32,000 nt of DNA from Candidatus Saccharimonadota bacterium. GTDB lineage: Bacteria; Patescibacteriota; Gracilibacteria; UBA4473. The DNA lies in assembly GCA_965228485.1 (NCBI GenBank), contig OZ245819.1, positions 780,001-812,000 on the forward strand, read 5' to 3'. The notes beneath the pieces are model-generated. The model was not told where the DNA came from and did not search any database. It was given only the letters and a program-made list of their open reading frames with translations. Shown piece by piece: positions 20,389-27,427 of this stretch (its first letter is position 1; each line of letters starts with the position of its first letter). The position numbers and the translations under genes were made by a program.

Positions 20389-21821
20389 CTTTACCTATTG
20401 TCGCTATTGTTGGACGCCCAAATGTTGGGAAATCGACGCTTTTTAATGCCATCATTGGGCAGAGAAAATCGATCGTATCAGATATTGCTGGAACCACTCG
20501 AGACAGCGTTATGGAAAAGGTAGAGGATTTAGGCGAAATCCCTTTTTGGCTCGTTGATACCGCAGGACTTAGTGACTTCGGAGACAACTCTCTTGAAGAA
20601 GAAATTCAGACTCAAGCTCGAGTCGCTATTGAAAATGCAGACTGTATTATTTGGGTTGTGGACGGAAAAGGAGAGCTTACTCAGGATGACTATGATGTTG
20701 CAGAAATCCTCAGAACTCAATCAAAAAAGGTAATTTTCTGTGCCAACAAGATTGATGATGGAAATCCTCAAAAAACTTATGATTTTGCGACTCTTGGTTT
20801 TGGACTTCCTGAAACCATCTCGGCAAAAAATAACTTTGGGTTTTGGGAATTCACCGAAAGCATCAGCAATAAGCTCAAAGAACTCGACCTAGGAGCTGAT
20901 GAAGAAGCCGAAGCAACCGAAGAAGATATTATTAAAATTGCTCTAGTGGGAAGACCAAATGTTGGTAAATCAACGCTTTTTAATCAAGTTTTGGGACAAA
21001 AAAGAAGTGTTGTTTCAGATGTGGCTGGGACCACTCGAGATGCCATCGATACAGAATTTGCAGATGAAAACGGCCAACGGTACCTTTTCATAGATACCGC
21101 AGGGGTGCGAAAACGAGGAAAAGTTGGTCGAGAAATGGAATTCTGGAGTGTTGTAAGAACTCAAAAATCTATTGAAAGAGCTGATATCTGCCTTCTTCTA
21201 ATCGACAGCTTGGACGGAGTCACCCATCAAGATTTAGCTCTTGCTGGAGAAGTAGTTGAGGCTGGAAAAGGTCTGATTATTGGAGTGAATAAATTCGATT
21301 TGGCACGAGAGAAAGCTCGAACAGAAGAAGAGTCTGATGAACGAGAACTTGATGATGTTCCAATGTGGGACGAAGATATCGCAAAAATTCGAGACCGATA
21401 TCTAAACTACCTACACAGAAAAATTACATTTATTCCTTGGGCGCCGGTTCTTTTCTTTTCTGGAAAAACAGGAAAAGGAGTTCAAGATATTTTTGACTCA
21501 ATTAAAGGAATTAAAGCCGAACAAACAAAGCGAATTCCAACACGTGAACTCAACCTCATGATTCCAGACATCTACTACCAACATGTTTCTCCAAGCATTG
21601 GAACCAAAAAAGGAAAGATCAAATATGCTAGTCAGGTAGATACTTGTCCGCCTAAATTTATTTTCTTTGTAAACAATAAAGAAGCCTTTCACTTTTCTTA
21701 TAAAAGATATATCGAAAATCGAATTCGAGAAAAATACGGCTTTCTTGGAACGCCAATCATTGTTGAAATGCGAGACTCTATGGGAAGGTGGAAAGACAAT
21801 CCCGACAACCAAGAAGACTAG
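20379..21821 (+). CDS. der: Ribosome-associated GTPase Der/EngA (tandem GTPase domains plus a KH-like domain)
   Basis: Two G domains: IVAIVGRPNVGKSTLFN...DTAG...NKID and IALVGRPNVGKSTLFN...DTAG...NKFD. C-terminal KH-like region. Confidence 0.93.
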   Translation: MSPSLPIVAIVGRPNVGKSTLFNAIIGQRKSIVSDIAGTTRDSVMEKVEDLGEIPFWLVDTAGLSDFGDNSLEEEIQTQARVAIENADCIIWVVDGKGELTQDDYDVAEILRTQSKKVIFCANKIDDGNPQKTYDFATLGFGLPETISAKNNFGFWEFTESISNKLKELDLGADEEAEATEEDIIKIALVGRPNVGKSTLFNQVLGQKRSVVSDVAGTTRDAIDTEFADENGQRYLFIDTAGVRKRGKVGREMEFWSVVRTQKSIERADICLLLIDSLDGVTHQDLALAGEVVEAGKGLIIGVNKFDLAREKARTEEESDERELDDVPMWDEDIAKIRDRYLNYLHRKITFIPWAPVLFFSGKTGKGVQDIFDSIKGIKAEQTKRIPTRELNLMIPDIYYQHVSPSIGTKKGKIKYASQVDTCPPKFIFFVNNKEAFHFSYKRYIENRIREKYGFLGTPIIVEMRDSMGRWKDNPDNQED

Positions 21822-22885
21822 AGCTCTATCACCTGTACTTCGCTTTTGAAGTCATCAAAATGGTCTTTGTGTGTGGTCGTATAAAAAGTCTGACAACCTT
21901 CTGCCAGAGCTTCTAAGTGTGTTTGACGATCCGCATCTAACTCCGAAAAAACATCATCCAAAAGCACGATAGGGTTTATCCCCTTCGCGTCTTTTAAAAA
22001 ATGCTTCTGAGCTGAAACTAATGCGAGTAAAATAGATCTGCTTTCTCCTCTTGAAGCCGTTTCTGTGAGCAGTTTGTCACGATACATAAATTCGAAGTCA
22101 TCTCGATGAGCCGCCAGAAAGTTCTTTTTTGCGGCAACCTCTCTCTGCCATGTTCTGTCAAAAAAAGATAAAATACTTTCCTCCTCCAGACTAACGAACT
22201 CTGCAGGTTTTATCTGAATAGTAATTGATTCATCAATCCCAGAAATTTTTTGCAGTTCAGCGGCAAAAAATGGATTAAGGGCTTCTAAAAAAGATCTTCT
22301 AATTTCATCTAAAACTGGCAAGTTTTCCACAAGCACTTGATTCCAGGGAGCTAAAAGACTTTTTACCACCTTCTCGTCCCAAAGATGTTCTTCGCTCAAA
22401 TTTTTAAGTAGCTTTGTTTTTTGTTTGTGAGCCTTATTCGCTCTGAGCAGGGCTTCTCTGTACCGAGGGTATACTTGTACCAAAAAACGATCAAAGAAGC
22501 CCACCCGGTCTGTTTTTGTCCCAGAAAACAGATGAATAAACTCTGGACAAAAAAGCAATGTCGGAACCTGTCCAAAAAAGCGTGTTCGAGGCAATGGTTT
22601 GTCATTTCTATAGAACTGACGACTTCGAGGTTGGAATTTTATTTTAAACTGATCGCTGCTACTGGTTTTTGCTTCCAGGATAGCTGATGACTCCCCATGA
22701 CGAATTAAGGTCTCAGCATTATGCTCTCGCCAACTCTTCCCCACACTCAGAAGAGAAATAGCTTCTAGGATGTTTGTTTTCCCCTGCCCATTATCCCCAC
22801 AAAACACCACTTTATCACTCGTAAAATCAAAAGACTGGTTTGAATAGTTCCTGAAGTCCTTAAGCGTTAGAGAAGTAATTTTCAT
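21818..22885 (-). CDS. recF: DNA replication and repair protein RecF
   Basis: MKITSLTLKDFRNY, Walker A (GDNGQGKTNILEAI), signature (SRGESRSILLAL) and Walker B (VLLDDVFSELD). Confidence 0.9.
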   Translation of the reverse strand: MKITSLTLKDFRNYSNQSFDFTSDKVVFCGDNGQGKTNILEAISLLSVGKSWREHNAETLIRHGESSAILEAKTSSSDQFKIKFQPRSRQFYRNDKPLPRTRFFGQVPTLLFCPEFIHLFSGTKTDRVGFFDRFLVQVYPRYREALLRANKAHKQKTKLLKNLSEEHLWDEKVVKSLLAPWNQVLVENLPVLDEIRRSFLEALNPFFAAELQKISGIDESITIQIKPAEFVSLEEESILSFFDRTWQREVAAKKNFLAAHRDDFEFMYRDKLLTETASRGESRSILLALVSAQKHFLKDAKGINPIVLLDDVFSELDADRQTHLEALAEGCQTFYTTTHKDHFDDFKSEVQVIEL

Positions 22886-22893
22886 GCTTTGTT

Positions 22894-22918
22894 GTCATTC
22901 TGAGTTTACGAAGAATCT
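22894..22918 (+). repeat. Hairpin repeat, copy 1 (GTCATTCTGAGTTTACGAAGAATCT)
   Basis: Lies between the recF start and the GIY-YIG stop. Internal inverted repeat ATTCT...AGAAT. Confidence 0.8.
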
Positions 22919-22924
22919 TCCCTA

Positions 22925-23212
22925 TTACCAATCAAGTGATAAGTCTTTTAACTGAGGGTTATTTTGTTTTATGAGGTTTTCTTTTTTCATTCGCTTCCAC
23001 CCCTTTAGTTCTTTTTCTCTCTCAATAGCTGAATCAGCACTACTTGTTTCTTCAAAATACAATAGATCCATACAATTATATTTTTTAGTAAAACCTTCTA
23101 CGAGCTTATTTTTATGTTCATAAATTCTTCTCTCAAGATCGTTGGTGACACCAATATATAAAACTGTTCTTTTGTAATTTGAAAGAATATACACAAAATA
23201 TTGTTTTTGCAT
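22925..23212 (-). CDS. GIY-YIG nuclease family protein (small, UPF0213-like)
   Basis: YFVYILSNYKRTVLYIGVTNDLERRIYEHKN, then ...AIEREKELKGW. The ORF extends to 23248, but the Met at 23212 (MQKQYFVYIL) fits the family N-terminus. Confidence 0.85.
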   Translation of the reverse strand: MQKQYFVYILSNYKRTVLYIGVTNDLERRIYEHKNKLVEGFTKKYNCMDLLYFEETSSADSAIEREKELKGWKRMKKENLIKQNNPQLKDLSLDW

Positions 23213-23262
23213 GTTTTTAATTATTAGGGAAACACAGACCATCCACAAGGTTCTTTGTGTCA

Positions 23263-23286
23263 GTCATTCTGAGGCACGAAGAATCT
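23263..23286 (+). repeat. Hairpin repeat, copy 2 (GTCATTCTGAGGCACGAAGAATCT)
   Basis: Same orientation as copy 1, immediately upstream of the GIY-YIG gene. Differs only in the loop. Confidence 0.8.
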
Positions 23287-23344
23287 ATCATCGTTTTTTT
23301 AGAGGGGCTCAAATATTATCAAGTTTCTCATACAAAAAAACAAA

Positions 23345-23369
23345 GGATCCTTCGCAAGCTCAGGATGAC
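23345..23369 (-). repeat. Hairpin repeat, copy 3, inverted (GTCATCCTGAGCTTGCGAAGGATCC on the minus strand)
   Basis: 20/25 identical to copy 1. All differences are transitions, including the paired change ATTCT/AGAAT to ATCCT/AGGAT. Confidence 0.75.
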
Positions 23370-23401
23370 AATACCGACATTCAAAGCAAAAATACAAATA
23401 C

Positions 23402-23435
23402 AAAAAACCCCCGAGACAAAAGCCTCGGGGATTTT
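23402..23435 (-). terminator. Intrinsic terminator of the SLH surface-protein gene
   Basis: CCCCGAG-N8-CTCGGGG stem (23409-23430). On the minus strand it is followed by TTTTTTG. Sits about 45 nt after the stop at 23477. Confidence 0.75.
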
Positions 23436-23476
23436 GAGTTATTCAGCCAAGTAGGCTAAGAATTTAAGAATAAAAA

Positions 23477-26400
23477 TTATTCAGAAATTCCAGCTGATTG
23501 ACTTGGAAGTACTAGTTCAAAACCATTTAGGTATTGACCTGCTCCTCCATTATTTGATCGATCAGACCAAACGATAGAGTCTCCTGAACCAACTGCACCA
23601 GCTGTACCAGCAGCACTAACCGCTGTAGCATCATTTACAAGAGTACCCGTCACACTATCATTATCAGAAGCTCCGTTGTTGTAACCACCTTGAATTCGTA
23701 CTTCGTAGTAGTTAGTTCCATCAACTTCGTCGCCCATTCCAGTAAATGCAACATCAACAGATCCTGCAACCAAAGTTGCAGTTACACCTGTAACTAGATC
23801 AGTAGGTGTACCAGAGTAATCAGAACTTGAATATTTAACTAGGTCAAATGTTTCAGCTCCATTAGCAATTACGTCGACAGCTGAAGAAGTCACTTTAACC
23901 GTAACATCTTCTAGGATTGCTTCGTAAGCAGCATCATTAGACACCGTGAATCGGTAAATCGCCGCTTCACCAGCTGTAGATACGAAAGATGGTTGAGAAG
24001 CCGCGTTAGCGAATGTCAACATTGTTCGATAAGCCACATAGCTTTCTGATCCATTTGTATTATTAACAACACTTGTTAAATCAGAACCAGTAGAAGCTGT
24101 AACCGCTTCTACACCAGTAGTAGCTTCCGAAAGATCAGATACTACTCGTAGTCGTTGAGCTGTTTGAGATGCTTCGGTAATGTCTCGAGCATCAACTTTT
24201 AGAGTAACTGTTGTAGAGTTATCTTTTGGAACTTGGATTCGATCAGCATTAGCTAATTCAAAGTGAAGTTGCCCTCCTGTCATTTGTTTCGTTTGGATTA
24301 GGTTTCCAGCTTCATCGTAAAGTTTGAAGTTGAATCGATCTCCTCCGTCTGAATCAAGAGCAGAAACCGTAGCTGCAGCAGTGTAATCCACCGTACCAGC
24401 AGCACTATAAGTTGCATTTGGAGCAGTAAAAGCTGTTACTGTTGCAACTGTAGTAGGAAGACCTGCTTCTTCGATAACAATTTTATCTCCAACAGCAAAA
24501 GTAACTCCCCCTGCATCTACTACATCATCTGCTGTAGCATTGTCAGTTTGGATTGCTGGATCCGCCCCTACCGTAGTTGGAGCAGAAGAAGCATTTACAA
24601 AGTAAAAATCTTTAACTTCTACGTCATCGTTAGCGGCAGAAAGTCGGATTTTGTAAACCTCAATTTCTGTAGAGTTAGCTACGATAATGTTCGTAGAGTT
24701 AACGATAGTCGCTCCATCAGCAATAGTAAGCGTTCCTGATTGGACAAAAGTGTATGTTACAGAATCTACTGAATCTGTCCCAATAGTATCACCTAGAGCA
24801 GTACTTGTCCCAGCAAGATGAACTTCTACTTCATTACCGTTCTCTACATTGTCAGCGTTTGCTGCTGTAACAGAAATAGCAACATCATCAGAAGCACCTG
24901 TACCATCAGCTAGTGATTCCAGTGTATCCACTACTAGTTCAAATTCTTTTTGACCTGCAGATGGGATAACCACTGATAGGTCATTGAATGTAGCTTCACC
25001 AGAAGTGTTAAGGTTTCGAGATGAACCTTGTTGTACACCATCTACGAAAATTGCAGCTGTATATTCACCATAATTCTCGGCAGCACTAGTAGCAGTAGCA
25101 TTAGCTTCAATCGAAATTGAAGTAACATTTACATCTCCTGAATCATTGTTATCGAGAACAAATTTCATGAAAGTAACGTCATCTACTCCCGCTACGATAG
25201 TTTCAGCAGAGAAACCATCAGTTCGAGCGATTTCAAGAATAGATTGTTGTACTTCTACAAAAGAAGCTACTGCAGAACCAAGAACTTGGTCCGCAGGGAT
25301 TTGGTCTCCTGTAGAGATGTACTCTGGAGAATCAAATGCTGTTTTAGCGATTTGAAGTTTGATACCATCTGCATTATCTGCAGAGCTGTCAACATTACCT
25401 ACAAGCTTAATTACTGAAGTTCCAGCAAGTTCGAATGTAGTGTTGAAATCTAGGTAAGCATTCCCAGCAGTACCAGGAACAGCTCCCATAGCAGTACCTC
25501 CAAATTCGTTTTCTGTATCGATTAGTTTGTCGTTAACATAAAGTCGGAAATTATCAAAAGCGCCATTCAAACCAGCAAGAGTTGTAAGGTCTGTATTATC
25601 AGCTGGAGTCGTACCATTTGCAATAGCATTAACTTCAACTTTAACTCCATCAACGATCACTGGTTGATCAACGACTACTCGAGCCGTTAGGAATACAACA
25701 TCGTTAGAACCAGGAGCGTACTCTTGGTTAGATAGAGATGAAGGATCTCGTGAAATGTTGATGTCTCCTGCGTCAATAGTGTACATAGTTAGACGAGCAC
25801 AATCATCTTCAGCGTCATCACCAGAAGCACAAGTTACTCCTGTACCAGTAGTTTTAGTGCTGTCAGATGGGTCGATTTGAAGACCATCCCCATCAGACTT
25901 AGCTCGTACTCCGAATGCTGTACCGATTTCAACCGCTACAACGTCTTCGAAGTTATCAACCTTGAAGTTGATTGTATCTCCTTTTTCAGCAGAAACGATG
26001 TCTGTTCGGATAGAGAAGATTTTAGAGTCTCCGTCTTCGATGATGTAACCACCAGTTACACCGTTATCAAGTCGGAAAGTAACGTAGTCTCCGTCGATGA
26101 TAGTTTCAGCAGAAACTTGTTCACCAGAAACGTATAGACCAACATTTTCAAGAGTGTCTTCTAGTTCAGCGGTACCATCATTTTTGAAAGTAATAGCTCG
26201 AACTTCAACATCTTTATTAGTTGTAGATTGGTTTTCCATTTTGAATTTACCGATCTCAACGAAAGCATCACCAACTTCTACAGTTGTATCTGAACCAAGT
26301 TCGTCGAACTCCATAGATGTAACTTCGTAGCTAGCGATTTCCATTTCTTCACCTTCAACTGGGAAGTCTCCAGCAATGTTTGCTGCAGAAGAAACGATGT

Positions 26401-27427
26401 CATCAGCCGAAACAAGAACGAATCGGTTGTGGTGACCAGTATTTGTGTCTGTGTCAGAGAACTTCATAGAAGCAACAACATCAGCAACGATAGTTTGTCC
26501 AGCAGGAACAACGATAGGTGGGTTGAATCGTAGTTCAACAACATCATCATTGTTTACTGATTTATCGTTACCAACTTTGAATCCGTCAATTTCTAACCAA
26601 ACGTTTTCAAAATCGTCGTTGTCCCCTAGACCTAGACGAGTGAAAGTCATAGAAGAAATTTCTACGTCAGCATCATCAGAAGCTGTTAGCTCAACAGTAG
26701 TGAACGGAACTGAAGTAGCGTTGAAAGGAATGTTTGTTCCTCGTGGAGTATCATTAGATAGAGCCACTTCAACAGTACCTTCAGCGATTCCGTTGAATCC
26801 ACCAAGAGCTACCAGTTGACAATCGTAAACGATTTTAACAGTTTCAGCACGTGTTACAGCGTTTCCAGGACCGAAAGTCCCGTCACCGTAACCTCGCATA
26901 CAACCGTTGTTGTAGATAGTTTCTACGTAACCGTAGAACCAGTCTCCTGAAGTAACGTCATCAAAATGAGGTGCTCCAGAAAGGTCTTGATCAAGTTCAA
27001 AACCATTTACAACCATTTTAGCGATTTCAGCTCGGTTGATTCCAACACCTGGTCGGAACATTCCGTCTGGGTAACCGTTAATCCATCCTTGGTTGTACAT
27101 TGTTTCGATGTAGTCGTAGAACCAAGCTTCTTCAGCCACATCTGGGAAGTGAGGACCTCCCGTAGTATCCATATCGATTCCAGTAGCAAGAACGATGATT
27201 TTAGATACTTCCGCTCGATTTAGTTGTCGATTTGGTGCGAAAGAACCGTCATCATTTCCTCCTACAACTCCTTGGTCCATAAGTTCTTCAATCGCTTCTT
27301 CAGCCCAAGATGGGATTTCAGCGTCATCTGTGAATCCTAGAGAGGCAGCAGAAGCTACTCCGAAGAAAGCCACAGAAGAAAGAGCTACAGACGCAAGTCC
27401 TTTTTGTAAATGCGTAAGCAATTCCAT
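23477..27427 (-). CDS. Large secreted S-layer / surface protein with three N-terminal SLH domains
   Basis: Signal peptide (...FFGVASAAS). Three SLH repeats (aa ~32-82, 93-142, 153-201), each with W/F..Y..........G...G...G.F.P....NRAE. Then ~1100 aa of acidic, Thr/Val/Ala/Asp-rich sequence in recurring ~110-130 aa modules. Confidence 0.85.
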   Translation of the reverse strand: MELLTHLQKGLASVALSSVAFFGVASAASLGFTDDAEIPSWAEEAIEELMDQGVVGGNDDGSFAPNRQLNRAEVSKIIVLATGIDMDTTGGPHFPDVAEEAWFYDYIETMYNQGWINGYPDGMFRPGVGINRAEIAKMVVNGFELDQDLSGAPHFDDVTSGDWFYGYVETIYNNGCMRGYGDGTFGPGNAVTRAETVKIVYDCQLVALGGFNGIAEGTVEVALSNDTPRGTNIPFNATSVPFTTVELTASDDADVEISSMTFTRLGLGDNDDFENVWLEIDGFKVGNDKSVNNDDVVELRFNPPIVVPAGQTIVADVVASMKFSDTDTNTGHHNRFVLVSADDIVSSAANIAGDFPVEGEEMEIASYEVTSMEFDELGSDTTVEVGDAFVEIGKFKMENQSTTNKDVEVRAITFKNDGTAELEDTLENVGLYVSGEQVSAETIIDGDYVTFRLDNGVTGGYIIEDGDSKIFSIRTDIVSAEKGDTINFKVDNFEDVVAVEIGTAFGVRAKSDGDGLQIDPSDSTKTTGTGVTCASGDDAEDDCARLTMYTIDAGDINISRDPSSLSNQEYAPGSNDVVFLTARVVVDQPVIVDGVKVEVNAIANGTTPADNTDLTTLAGLNGAFDNFRLYVNDKLIDTENEFGGTAMGAVPGTAGNAYLDFNTTFELAGTSVIKLVGNVDSSADNADGIKLQIAKTAFDSPEYISTGDQIPADQVLGSAVASFVEVQQSILEIARTDGFSAETIVAGVDDVTFMKFVLDNNDSGDVNVTSISIEANATATSAAENYGEYTAAIFVDGVQQGSSRNLNTSGEATFNDLSVVIPSAGQKEFELVVDTLESLADGTGASDDVAISVTAANADNVENGNEVEVHLAGTSTALGDTIGTDSVDSVTYTFVQSGTLTIADGATIVNSTNIIVANSTEIEVYKIRLSAANDDVEVKDFYFVNASSAPTTVGADPAIQTDNATADDVVDAGGVTFAVGDKIVIEEAGLPTTVATVTAFTAPNATYSAAGTVDYTAAATVSALDSDGGDRFNFKLYDEAGNLIQTKQMTGGQLHFELANADRIQVPKDNSTTVTLKVDARDITEASQTAQRLRVVSDLSEATTGVEAVTASTGSDLTSVVNNTNGSESYVAYRTMLTFANAASQPSFVSTAGEAAIYRFTVSNDAAYEAILEDVTVKVTSSAVDVIANGAETFDLVKYSSSDYSGTPTDLVTGVTATLVAGSVDVAFTGMGDEVDGTNYYEVRIQGGYNNGASDNDSVTGTLVNDATAVSAAGTAGAVGSGDSIVWSDRSNNGGAGQYLNGFELVLPSQSAGISE

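Follow-up and report, generated by a model that had tools for sequence, protein, structure and literature searches.

A GIY-YIG nuclease gene of the Ssn family and its adjoining hairpin repeats in a Candidate Phyla Radiation genome

The nuclease gene and the repeats around it

The window analysed here comprises 32,000 nucleotides (nt), positions 780,001 to 812,000 of contig OZ245819.1 (assembly GCA_965228485.1), from an uncultured small-genome bacterium of the Candidate Phyla Radiation (CPR). The genome is represented by one contig of 1.295 Mb with 38% G+C. The subject of this study is a short intergenic element of the window, in which a gene for a small GIY-YIG nuclease, referred to below as ssn, is accompanied by three copies of a hairpin-forming repeat. 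The gene lies on the reverse strand at 22925-23212, with its stop codon at 22925-22927, and encodes a single-domain nuclease of 95 amino acids (aa) that belongs to the Ssn family. Its open reading frame (ORF) is located between repeat copies 1 and 2. On the outer sides, the element is bordered by recF and by the gene of a large surface protein.

Bracketing of a GIY-YIG gene by repeats had been proposed in an initial annotation of this DNA and is confirmed: the 95-aa protein is matched by the Pfam family GIY-YIG (PF01541) over residues 4-79 with E = 1.3e-17. A second Pfam match, to T5orf172 (PF10544; 20.2 bits), covers the same stretch, and no others were found. Y8, Y19 and E66 are predicted to be its catalytic residues. 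The gene and that of UvrC are the only GIY-YIG genes in the whole genome.

The repeats were located with the pattern GTCATYCTGAG-N(3-6)-CGAAGRATC, which has three exact matches in the window and none in 100 dinucleotide-preserving shuffles. Copy 1, GTCATTCTGAGTTTACGAAGAATC, is found on the forward strand at 22894-22917, has a T-type stem (ATTCT/AGAAT) and is antisense to ssn. It begins 7 nt past the ssn stop codon, which is the downstream position usual for the Ssn family (median 10 nt among 80 homologues), and its GTC end is 8 nt from the recF start codon. Supply of a start codon to recF by the terminal ATGAC of the element was considered and rejected, since this ATG lies 13 nt away from that of recF and in another frame. 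Copy 2, GTCATTCTGAGGCACGAAGAATC, at 23263-23285 on the forward strand, is also T-type, has a 3-nt loop, and lies antisense, 50 nt upstream of the ssn start. Copy 3, GTCATCCTGAGCTTGCGAAGGATC, at 23346-23369 on the reverse strand, is upstream of ssn in the sense orientation and has a C-type stem (ATCCT/AGGAT). The presence of three copies, the paired T>C and A>G change in the stem of copy 3, and the observation that all five differences between the 25-nt units of copies 1 and 3 are transitions were thus all reproduced. The layout requires a correction. The gene is indeed bracketed, but copies 1 and 2 are not the flanking pair that they were taken for; the pair in the usual layout consists of copies 3 and 1, and copy 2 is an extra antisense unit. 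Together with copy 3 it forms a gene-less inverted pair of 107 bp at 23263-23369, with the GTC ends outermost.

Proteins of this kind have recently been described. SsnA of Neisseria meningitidis (NMV_0044; CDD cd10448, GIY-YIG_unchar_3) is a 94-aa single-domain GIY-YIG protein that acts as a site-specific single-stranded DNA (ssDNA) endonuclease (Chenal et al., Nat Commun 2025;16:2388; PMC11893778). It binds the 28-nt NTS hairpin CGTCATTCCCGCGMAVGCGGGAATCYRG solely as ssDNA, and not as double-stranded DNA (dsDNA), as RNA or as the reverse strand, and in vitro it cleaves a few nucleotides upstream of the hairpin (PMC11893778). The three bases 5' of the palindrome matter for cutting, the C just 3' of it matters for binding, and the residues mutated in the meningococcal enzyme were Y6, Y17 and E64 (PMC11893778). 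Ssn homologues in many bacteria have so-called SRM hairpins nearby, on both flanks in 42% (PMC11893778). An insertion-sequence-like architecture and an analogy with REP repeats and their RAYT transposases were noted by the same authors, and mobility was not demonstrated there (PMC11893778).

The comparison with Neisseria was based on NZ_CP119140.1 and NZ_CP119142.1, plasmid-labelled entries of 2.17 Mb that are evidently N. gonorrhoeae chromosomes. A tblastn search of a 7.3-Gb plasmid collection with the ssn protein returned a match in one of these two N. gonorrhoeae records with E = 7e-20. The corresponding ORF encodes 94 aa with the residues Y6/Y17/E64 and is accompanied by 13 NTS repeats within 1.7 kb. 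From its length, these residues and the flanking repeats, rather than from its accession, this ORF can be recognised as the SsnA orthologue. In BLASTP, the two proteins are 47% identical over 91 aa without gaps (E = 6e-30), and Y8/Y19/E66 of the ssn protein align with Y6/Y17/E64 of the gonococcal one. Both E-values are below the limit of 1e-10 applied to tblastn and blastp matches in the published study (PMC11893778). Like the described enzymes of about 94 aa, the protein of 95 aa consists of a single domain without an extra DNA-binding domain and retains the equivalents of Y6, Y17 and E64, and its gene lies between oriented hairpins (5'-GTC, palindrome, C) on both sides. The feature is real and is an example of the Ssn kind published in 2025. 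The earlier statement that the mechanism of such elements is not characterised does not hold, since both are part of the Ssn / NTS-SRM system, the gene as well as the repeat (PMC11893778).

The element fills most of the spacer between its neighbours. The recF gene (21818-22885, reverse strand; PF02463 SMC_N and AAA families) is directly downstream of the cassette and shares 51-58% identity with its orthologues in four congeneric genomes. Upstream, the gene of a 1316-aa surface protein with three SLH domains (Pfam) is encoded on the reverse strand at 23477-27427, and its intrinsic terminator, at 23404-23435 on the same strand, marks the upstream limit of the cassette-filled intergenic spacer. 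Copies 1 to 3 together span 476 bp, which leaves 8 nt and about 35 nt of the spacer between recF and the terminator. The cassette had been said to occupy the place where dnaN usually sits. However, dnaN is found at about 476 kb of the genome, distant from recF, so that recF is outside any dnaA-dnaN-recF cluster and the phrase is meaningless here. The cumulative GC skew of the whole genome is lowest near 850 kb and highest near 240 kb.

Repeat copies, stem covariation and association with the gene

A search of the whole genome with the consensus, in which the Y and R positions were left free and at most two substitutions per arm were allowed, returned 13 copies at nine loci, so the repeat is dispersed, as had been suspected, and not unique to this locus. 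The T-A or C-G stem pairing is kept in 12 of the 13 copies. All 13 are intergenic in a genome of which crude ORF calls cover about 93% of bases; the repeats are thus dispersed and rarely within genes, as expected of Ssn repeats, and their number is modest. At four loci they form inverted pairs of 62-107 bp with the GTC ends outermost. A C-type unit stands opposite a T-type unit in three of the four pairs, and in the fourth (1268219/1268280) the partner of the C-type unit has a stem with a mismatch, ATCCT/AGAAT. Spacers are partly conserved between pairs, with 70% identity over 133 aligned positions between the pair at 89948-90043 and that of the window. The gene-less pair at 23263-23369 resembles a non-autonomous cassette derivative. 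Apart from the gene-bearing cassette, the repeat content of the genome consists of four gene-less pairs and a few solo hairpins. By a GC-skew reading of the five unpaired copies, three are on the lagging-strand template and two are not.

Two of the solo hairpins (497193-497261 and 500092-500160 of the source genome) share a near-identical 5' flank of about 45 nt, gtggaatgataatttaagaaa[c/a]ttttaaaacgcttcat[t/c]aaattt. Consequently, they belong to a longer duplicated unit, whose copies are about 2.9 kb apart.

The association between hairpin and gene was examined across phyla. The homologue scan covered one genome per species and gave 566 confirmed relatives, and the cross-phylum hairpin analyses were carried out on the best 80 of these 566, at 55-70% identity, which span Chloroflexota, Clostridia, Bacteroidota, Proteobacteria, Spirochaetes, CPR and other groups. 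Hairpins of the form GTCAT...ATC adjoin the gene in nearly all of the 80 homologues. Within 250 nt on either side, the word GTCAT is about ten-fold enriched over its reversed control, and the frequency falls to background by about 500 nt. In the commonest layout (33 of the 80 loci), a sense hairpin precedes the start codon by a median of 24 nt and an antisense hairpin follows the stop codon by a median of 10 nt. The exact Neisseria NTS core GTCATTCCCGCGMAVGCGGGAATC is found in those positions in several homologues at 57-61% identity. The proposed association of repeat and GIY-YIG gene is therefore supported across many phyla, but not within the source genome, where such a gene stands beside the repeats at one of about nine loci.

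Stem classes differ between genomes among 40 relatives compared. The rule that the two ends of a cassette always differ in stem type was tried and discarded, as the relatives have 18 differing and 15 same pairs. In G024, a genome of the same family, several C- and T-type hairpins occur, at G024:C17:21448-21546 and at other sites, including a C-type/T-type inverted pair. The sole nuclease match in this 98%-complete assembly is weak (E = 3.5e-7), and here at least, gene-less hairpins may be maintained where no close ssn gene is present. In another relative of the same class, the Ssn homologue at G034:C34:10966-11241 contains four in-frame TGA codons, which suggests that TGA is read there as a sense codon, as in some Gracilibacteria-type lineages.

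Many full hairpins are adjoined on their outer side by tandem "stutter" copies, one or several in number and each consisting of the 5' half of the hairpin and 9-14 nt; in one example, GTCATCCCGCATTGTACCCTTT occurs twice and is followed by the full unit. Such copies recur across phyla, at L106:700-1190, at L108 (reverse complement) 1058-1110, and at L011, L013, L014, L015, L017, L018, L024, L026, L051, L071 and L075; none was seen in the window. They may have been left by cycles of cutting and repair at the hairpin, or by template switching there.

Selection on the hairpin structure was assessed through stem covariation. As candidates, every GTCAT...ATC in the 80 loci was taken with the stem triplets left free, so that pairing was not selected for. 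Complementary stem triplets are present in 344 of 853 candidates, against a mean of 44 and a maximum of 70 when the 3' triplets are shuffled, and 16 stem types occur, many of them in several genomes. Column covariation was evaluated on 93 distinct 25-mers picked by their anchors alone. Double-sided changes number 38 for columns 6-22, 24 for columns 7-21, 38 for columns 8-20 and 44 for columns 11-17; the observed score was reached by none of 500 shuffles and fell to about half or lower when the partners were shifted by one, two or three positions. Roughly two in three of the sequences have G.A in columns 9-19 and A.G in columns 10-18. Because the stems covary, the hairpin structure is under selection, and the claim first drawn from a single paired substitution is upheld.

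Stem covariation alone does not separate RNA from ssDNA. It is conceivable that the hairpins work at the RNA level, for example by regulating genes in cis, by stabilising transcripts through a stem-loop or by terminating transcription of flanking genes. Tandem G.A pairs are common in structured RNAs, and some copies are 6-15 nt from gene ends, in likely untranslated regions. However, the copies of the source genome occur in both orientations relative to their neighbours, between convergent, divergent and co-directional genes, and no T-tract was seen after their hairpins. The unpaired GTC and C are strand-specific and conserved whatever the direction of transcription, and the RNA folding energy is no better than that of shuffles. 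In the window, Rfam 15 yielded nothing at gathering thresholds, and with the limit relaxed to E = 10 the three repeats were unmatched save for loose rimP and His_leader alignments anchored on the terminator. In addition, the characterised SsnA does not bind RNA (PMC11893778). A role as RNA is regarded as extremely improbable.

Mobility of the cassette

The evidence for mobility comes from sequence comparison among relatives rather than from the window locus. In G021, a genome of the same family, a unit of cassette size is duplicated: three cassettes from separate contigs share 88-96% identity over 377-402 bp, and their flanks are unrelated. In two of the three pairwise comparisons, similarity extends from 2-3 nt before the sense GTC to about 3 nt past the antisense GTC, and in the remaining pair, L106/L107, it is about 27 nt longer on the downstream side. 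Such a boundary is in accord with the reported site of cleavage. The homologues nearest to the window protein (L113, L114 and L115, at 76, 73 and 69% identity) are located in three unrelated gene neighbourhoods, namely after a Mur ligase gene, in the ispH-ispG cluster, and between a glutamine amidotransferase gene and an aminotransferase gene, with no conserved synteny. The 24-mer of copy 3 nevertheless recurs unchanged in L113 and L114, in both cases 24 nt upstream of the homologue, and that of copy 1 upstream of the homologue in L115. The sharp boundaries and the identical hairpins in unrelated neighbourhoods support the idea of a very small mobile element. The initial suggestion of a selfish or mobile cassette appears reasonable in the light of the duplications in G021 and of these unrelated neighbourhoods.

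In L114, where the cassette lies between ispH and ispG, the called ispG start is the ATG within the terminal ATGAC of the antisense hairpin (L114:3166-3190).

Distribution of the gene is patchy, with 0 to 9 matches per genome among the 40 relatives. Within the genus, one genome has no match and another has fragments alone. The order of the SLH and recF genes is kept only in G004 among four congeneric genomes; the other three have different neighbours, and among them the gene upstream of recF was closely examined in G001.

In G004, a complete genome, the region L102:2544-3200, syntenic with positions 22886-23476 of the window, contains a 202-aa ORF of the IS200-like Y1_Tnp type (PF01797, E = 1.6e-8), flanked on both sides by the palindrome CAAGTCCGGACTT. 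This cassette bears on a second explanation, according to which the repeats are ends moved by another enzyme, an IS200/IS605-type Y1 or RAYT transposase or a dsDNA transposase, while the GIY-YIG gene is cargo or a neighbour. The ends would then be comparable to miniature inverted-repeat transposable elements (MITEs) or to REP sequences. An IS200-like gene with palindromes in the same spacer of a congeneric genome speaks in its favour, as does the resemblance of inverted pairs with outward ends to MITEs or REPINs, and the source genome itself has one weak Y1_Tnp-like ORF. That ORF, the sole PF01797 match (26.9 bits, at about 328 kb), is however 29 kb from the nearest hairpin, with none beside it, and no Y1 gene flanked by the repeats was found in the genome. 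The palindrome in G004 is unrelated to the repeat of the window, and the latter travels with the GIY-YIG gene across many phyla in fixed positions and orientation. Furthermore, the covariation within each unit points to folding of a single strand, a requirement that ordinary terminal inverted repeats of dsDNA do not have. Movement by another enzyme is therefore considered very unlikely. The occurrence of two different cassettes of hairpins and a small nuclease in the same spacer of two species of one genus hints at a common landing-site preference.

A third explanation shares its biochemistry with the reading as a mobile cassette and differs in what maintains the system. Here the nuclease would serve a domesticated host function, cutting incoming hairpin-bearing ssDNA during natural transformation and thereby modulating recombination near certain genes, for example the S-layer gene, and the hairpins would be kept by selection at the level of the host. 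DNA-uptake machinery is commonly encoded by CPR bacteria, and the window cassette abuts the 1316-aa SLH gene. In N. meningitidis, NTS repeats cluster near surface-protein genes, and restriction of NTS-bearing transforming DNA is the sole in vivo function demonstrated for the Ssn family (PMC11893778). However, 13 hairpins in 1.3 Mb are far too few for an effect on most incoming DNA, the gene is missing or fragmentary in some congeneric genomes, the closest homologues lack conserved synteny, and the cassette-sized duplications in G021 are more readily explained by a mobile element. The small number of copies, their patchy occurrence and the absence of synteny speak for a selfish cassette rather than for a domesticated role, which is rated as unlikely, though with more substance than the two preceding alternatives.

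Interpretation and comparison with known systems

The explanation considered highly probable is that the 95-aa protein is an Ssn-family endonuclease, that the repeats of 23-25 nt are its cognate hairpins of the NTS/SRM type, and that the cassette is insertion-sequence-like. It draws on sequence relationships and on analogy with the characterised enzymes. By analogy with Neisseria and Wolbachia, the ssn protein would bind the repeat solely as ssDNA, on the strand reading 5'-GTC-stem-loop-stem-C-3', and would then nick a few nucleotides 5' of GTC. Recognition would depend on the stem (AT plus three variable pairs, G.A/A.G, and the loop-closing G-C), on the unpaired GTC and on the C after the stem. 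The hairpin-ssn-hairpin unit would behave as a very small insertion-sequence-like cassette, and a single nuclease could act in trans on gene-less pairs and solo hairpins. Both the cleavage of ssDNA by the window protein and its part in moving the cassette are postulated from the characterised relatives.

Several points weigh against this explanation. The published SRM pattern, HGTCWYN(0-2)YYVSBRHN(0-5)WNVSBRGN(0-2)RNCYNB, which is a search heuristic and not a family definition, matches none of the 13 copies, and the failure is solely at the two symmetric tandem-G.A positions. The single SRM match elsewhere in the source genome is at chance level (2.3 in shuffles), and among the 344 hairpins beside the 80 homologues the pattern matches 11. 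Moreover, the meningococcal SsnA is inactive after a change of the palindrome sequence that retains the hairpin (PMC11893778). Because of this mismatch and the sequence dependence of the meningococcal enzyme, the published specificity cannot be simply carried over, and activity of the window protein on the tandem-G.A variant is a prediction by analogy. The layout upstream of the gene is atypical, as the first hairpin on that side, at a distance of 50 nt, is in antisense orientation. Folding of the hairpins is weak, at -0.9 to -1.9 kcal/mol as DNA in a nearest-neighbour model, with z-scores near 0, and folding energies as ssDNA or RNA are no better than those of shuffles. The structural support consequently derives from covariation and not from thermodynamics; a weak folding energy combined with a selected structure fits a structure that is read or held by a protein. 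With regard to mobility, no empty site was found in the four congeneric genomes and no target-site duplication was shown at the locus, and with a single ssn copy in the genome the boundaries of its own cassette are undefined. Finally, the nuclease has no known ligase or strand-transfer activity, and completion of transposition by it is hypothetical.

A more far-reaching version combines two propositions. The hairpin-ssn-hairpin unit of about 370-480 bp would be an autonomous ssDNA mobile element with the 95-aa nuclease as its sole protein and with four MITE-like derivatives, whose ends are usually C-type versus T-type. At the same time, the tandem-G.A repeat would represent a large Ssn specificity class, predominant near the closest homologues in Chloroflexota, Clostridia, Bacteroidota and CPR and unseen by the SRM census. 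This combination is tentative, being possible yet somewhat short of probable. If it is true, the repeat load and the host range of Ssn have been substantially underestimated. In practical terms, the gene is properly named an Ssn-family ssDNA endonuclease and the repeats its cognate hairpins. The presence of the tandem-G.A class beside close homologues in many phyla provides candidate enzyme/site pairs of new specificity for the ssDNA tools envisaged in the published study (PMC11893778).

Among known systems, the GIY-YIG homing endonucleases (I-TevI and the Seg enzymes of phage T4) resemble the ssn system in their catalytic domain and their lifestyle as selfish elements. However, homing enzymes bind DNA through a separate C-terminal domain, and their substrate is dsDNA at the cognate allele, whereas the ssn protein is a bare domain of 95 aa. 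Its identity as a homing endonuclease was rejected on this ground and on that of the NCBIfam search, in which TIGR01453 (group I intron endonuclease) was the only match, below threshold at 18.8 bits against a cut-off of 56. The UPF0213/YhbQ proteins are similar in size and fold class, and one of them, BH0048 of Bacillus halodurans (PDB 1zg2), was the only match, and a weak one (E = 7e-4, 22.8 bits), in a PDB sequence search, which returned no Ssn structure. To our knowledge, no association with hairpin repeats has been described for that family.

Closer parallels in organisation are offered by the REP/BIME (REPIN) sequences with their RAYT genes and by the IS200/IS605 elements. They also have a small nuclease gene flanked by short hairpin-forming repeats, gene-less inverted pairs distributed over intergenic regions, and recognition of hairpins in ssDNA, a property expected here by analogy. 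The differences concern chemistry and geometry. A covalent intermediate is formed by the HUH/Y1 enzymes, in contrast to hydrolytic nicking by GIY-YIG enzymes in Ssn, and in IS200/IS605 both end hairpins are on one strand, whereas the ends are inverted in the window.

The closest system is SsnA with its NTS repeats. Both proteins are single-domain GIY-YIG enzymes of 94-95 aa with the catalytic Tyr/Tyr/Glu conserved. The repeats share the frame GTCAT + 3 + 3 + loop + 3 + 3 + ATC, the gene is flanked on both sides, and the copies are dispersed, intergenic and often arranged as inverted pairs. Three differences stand beside these similarities. The source genome has 13 copies, compared with hundreds in pathogenic Neisseria; the host is a CPR bacterium, a group that, like Bacteroidota, is unmentioned in the text of the published study (PMC11893778); and the innermost-but-one stem pairs are tandem G.A/A.G in the window and G-C in Neisseria. 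With the frame of the repeat kept, the tandem-G.A form appears as a variant of this repeat class and not as a different system.

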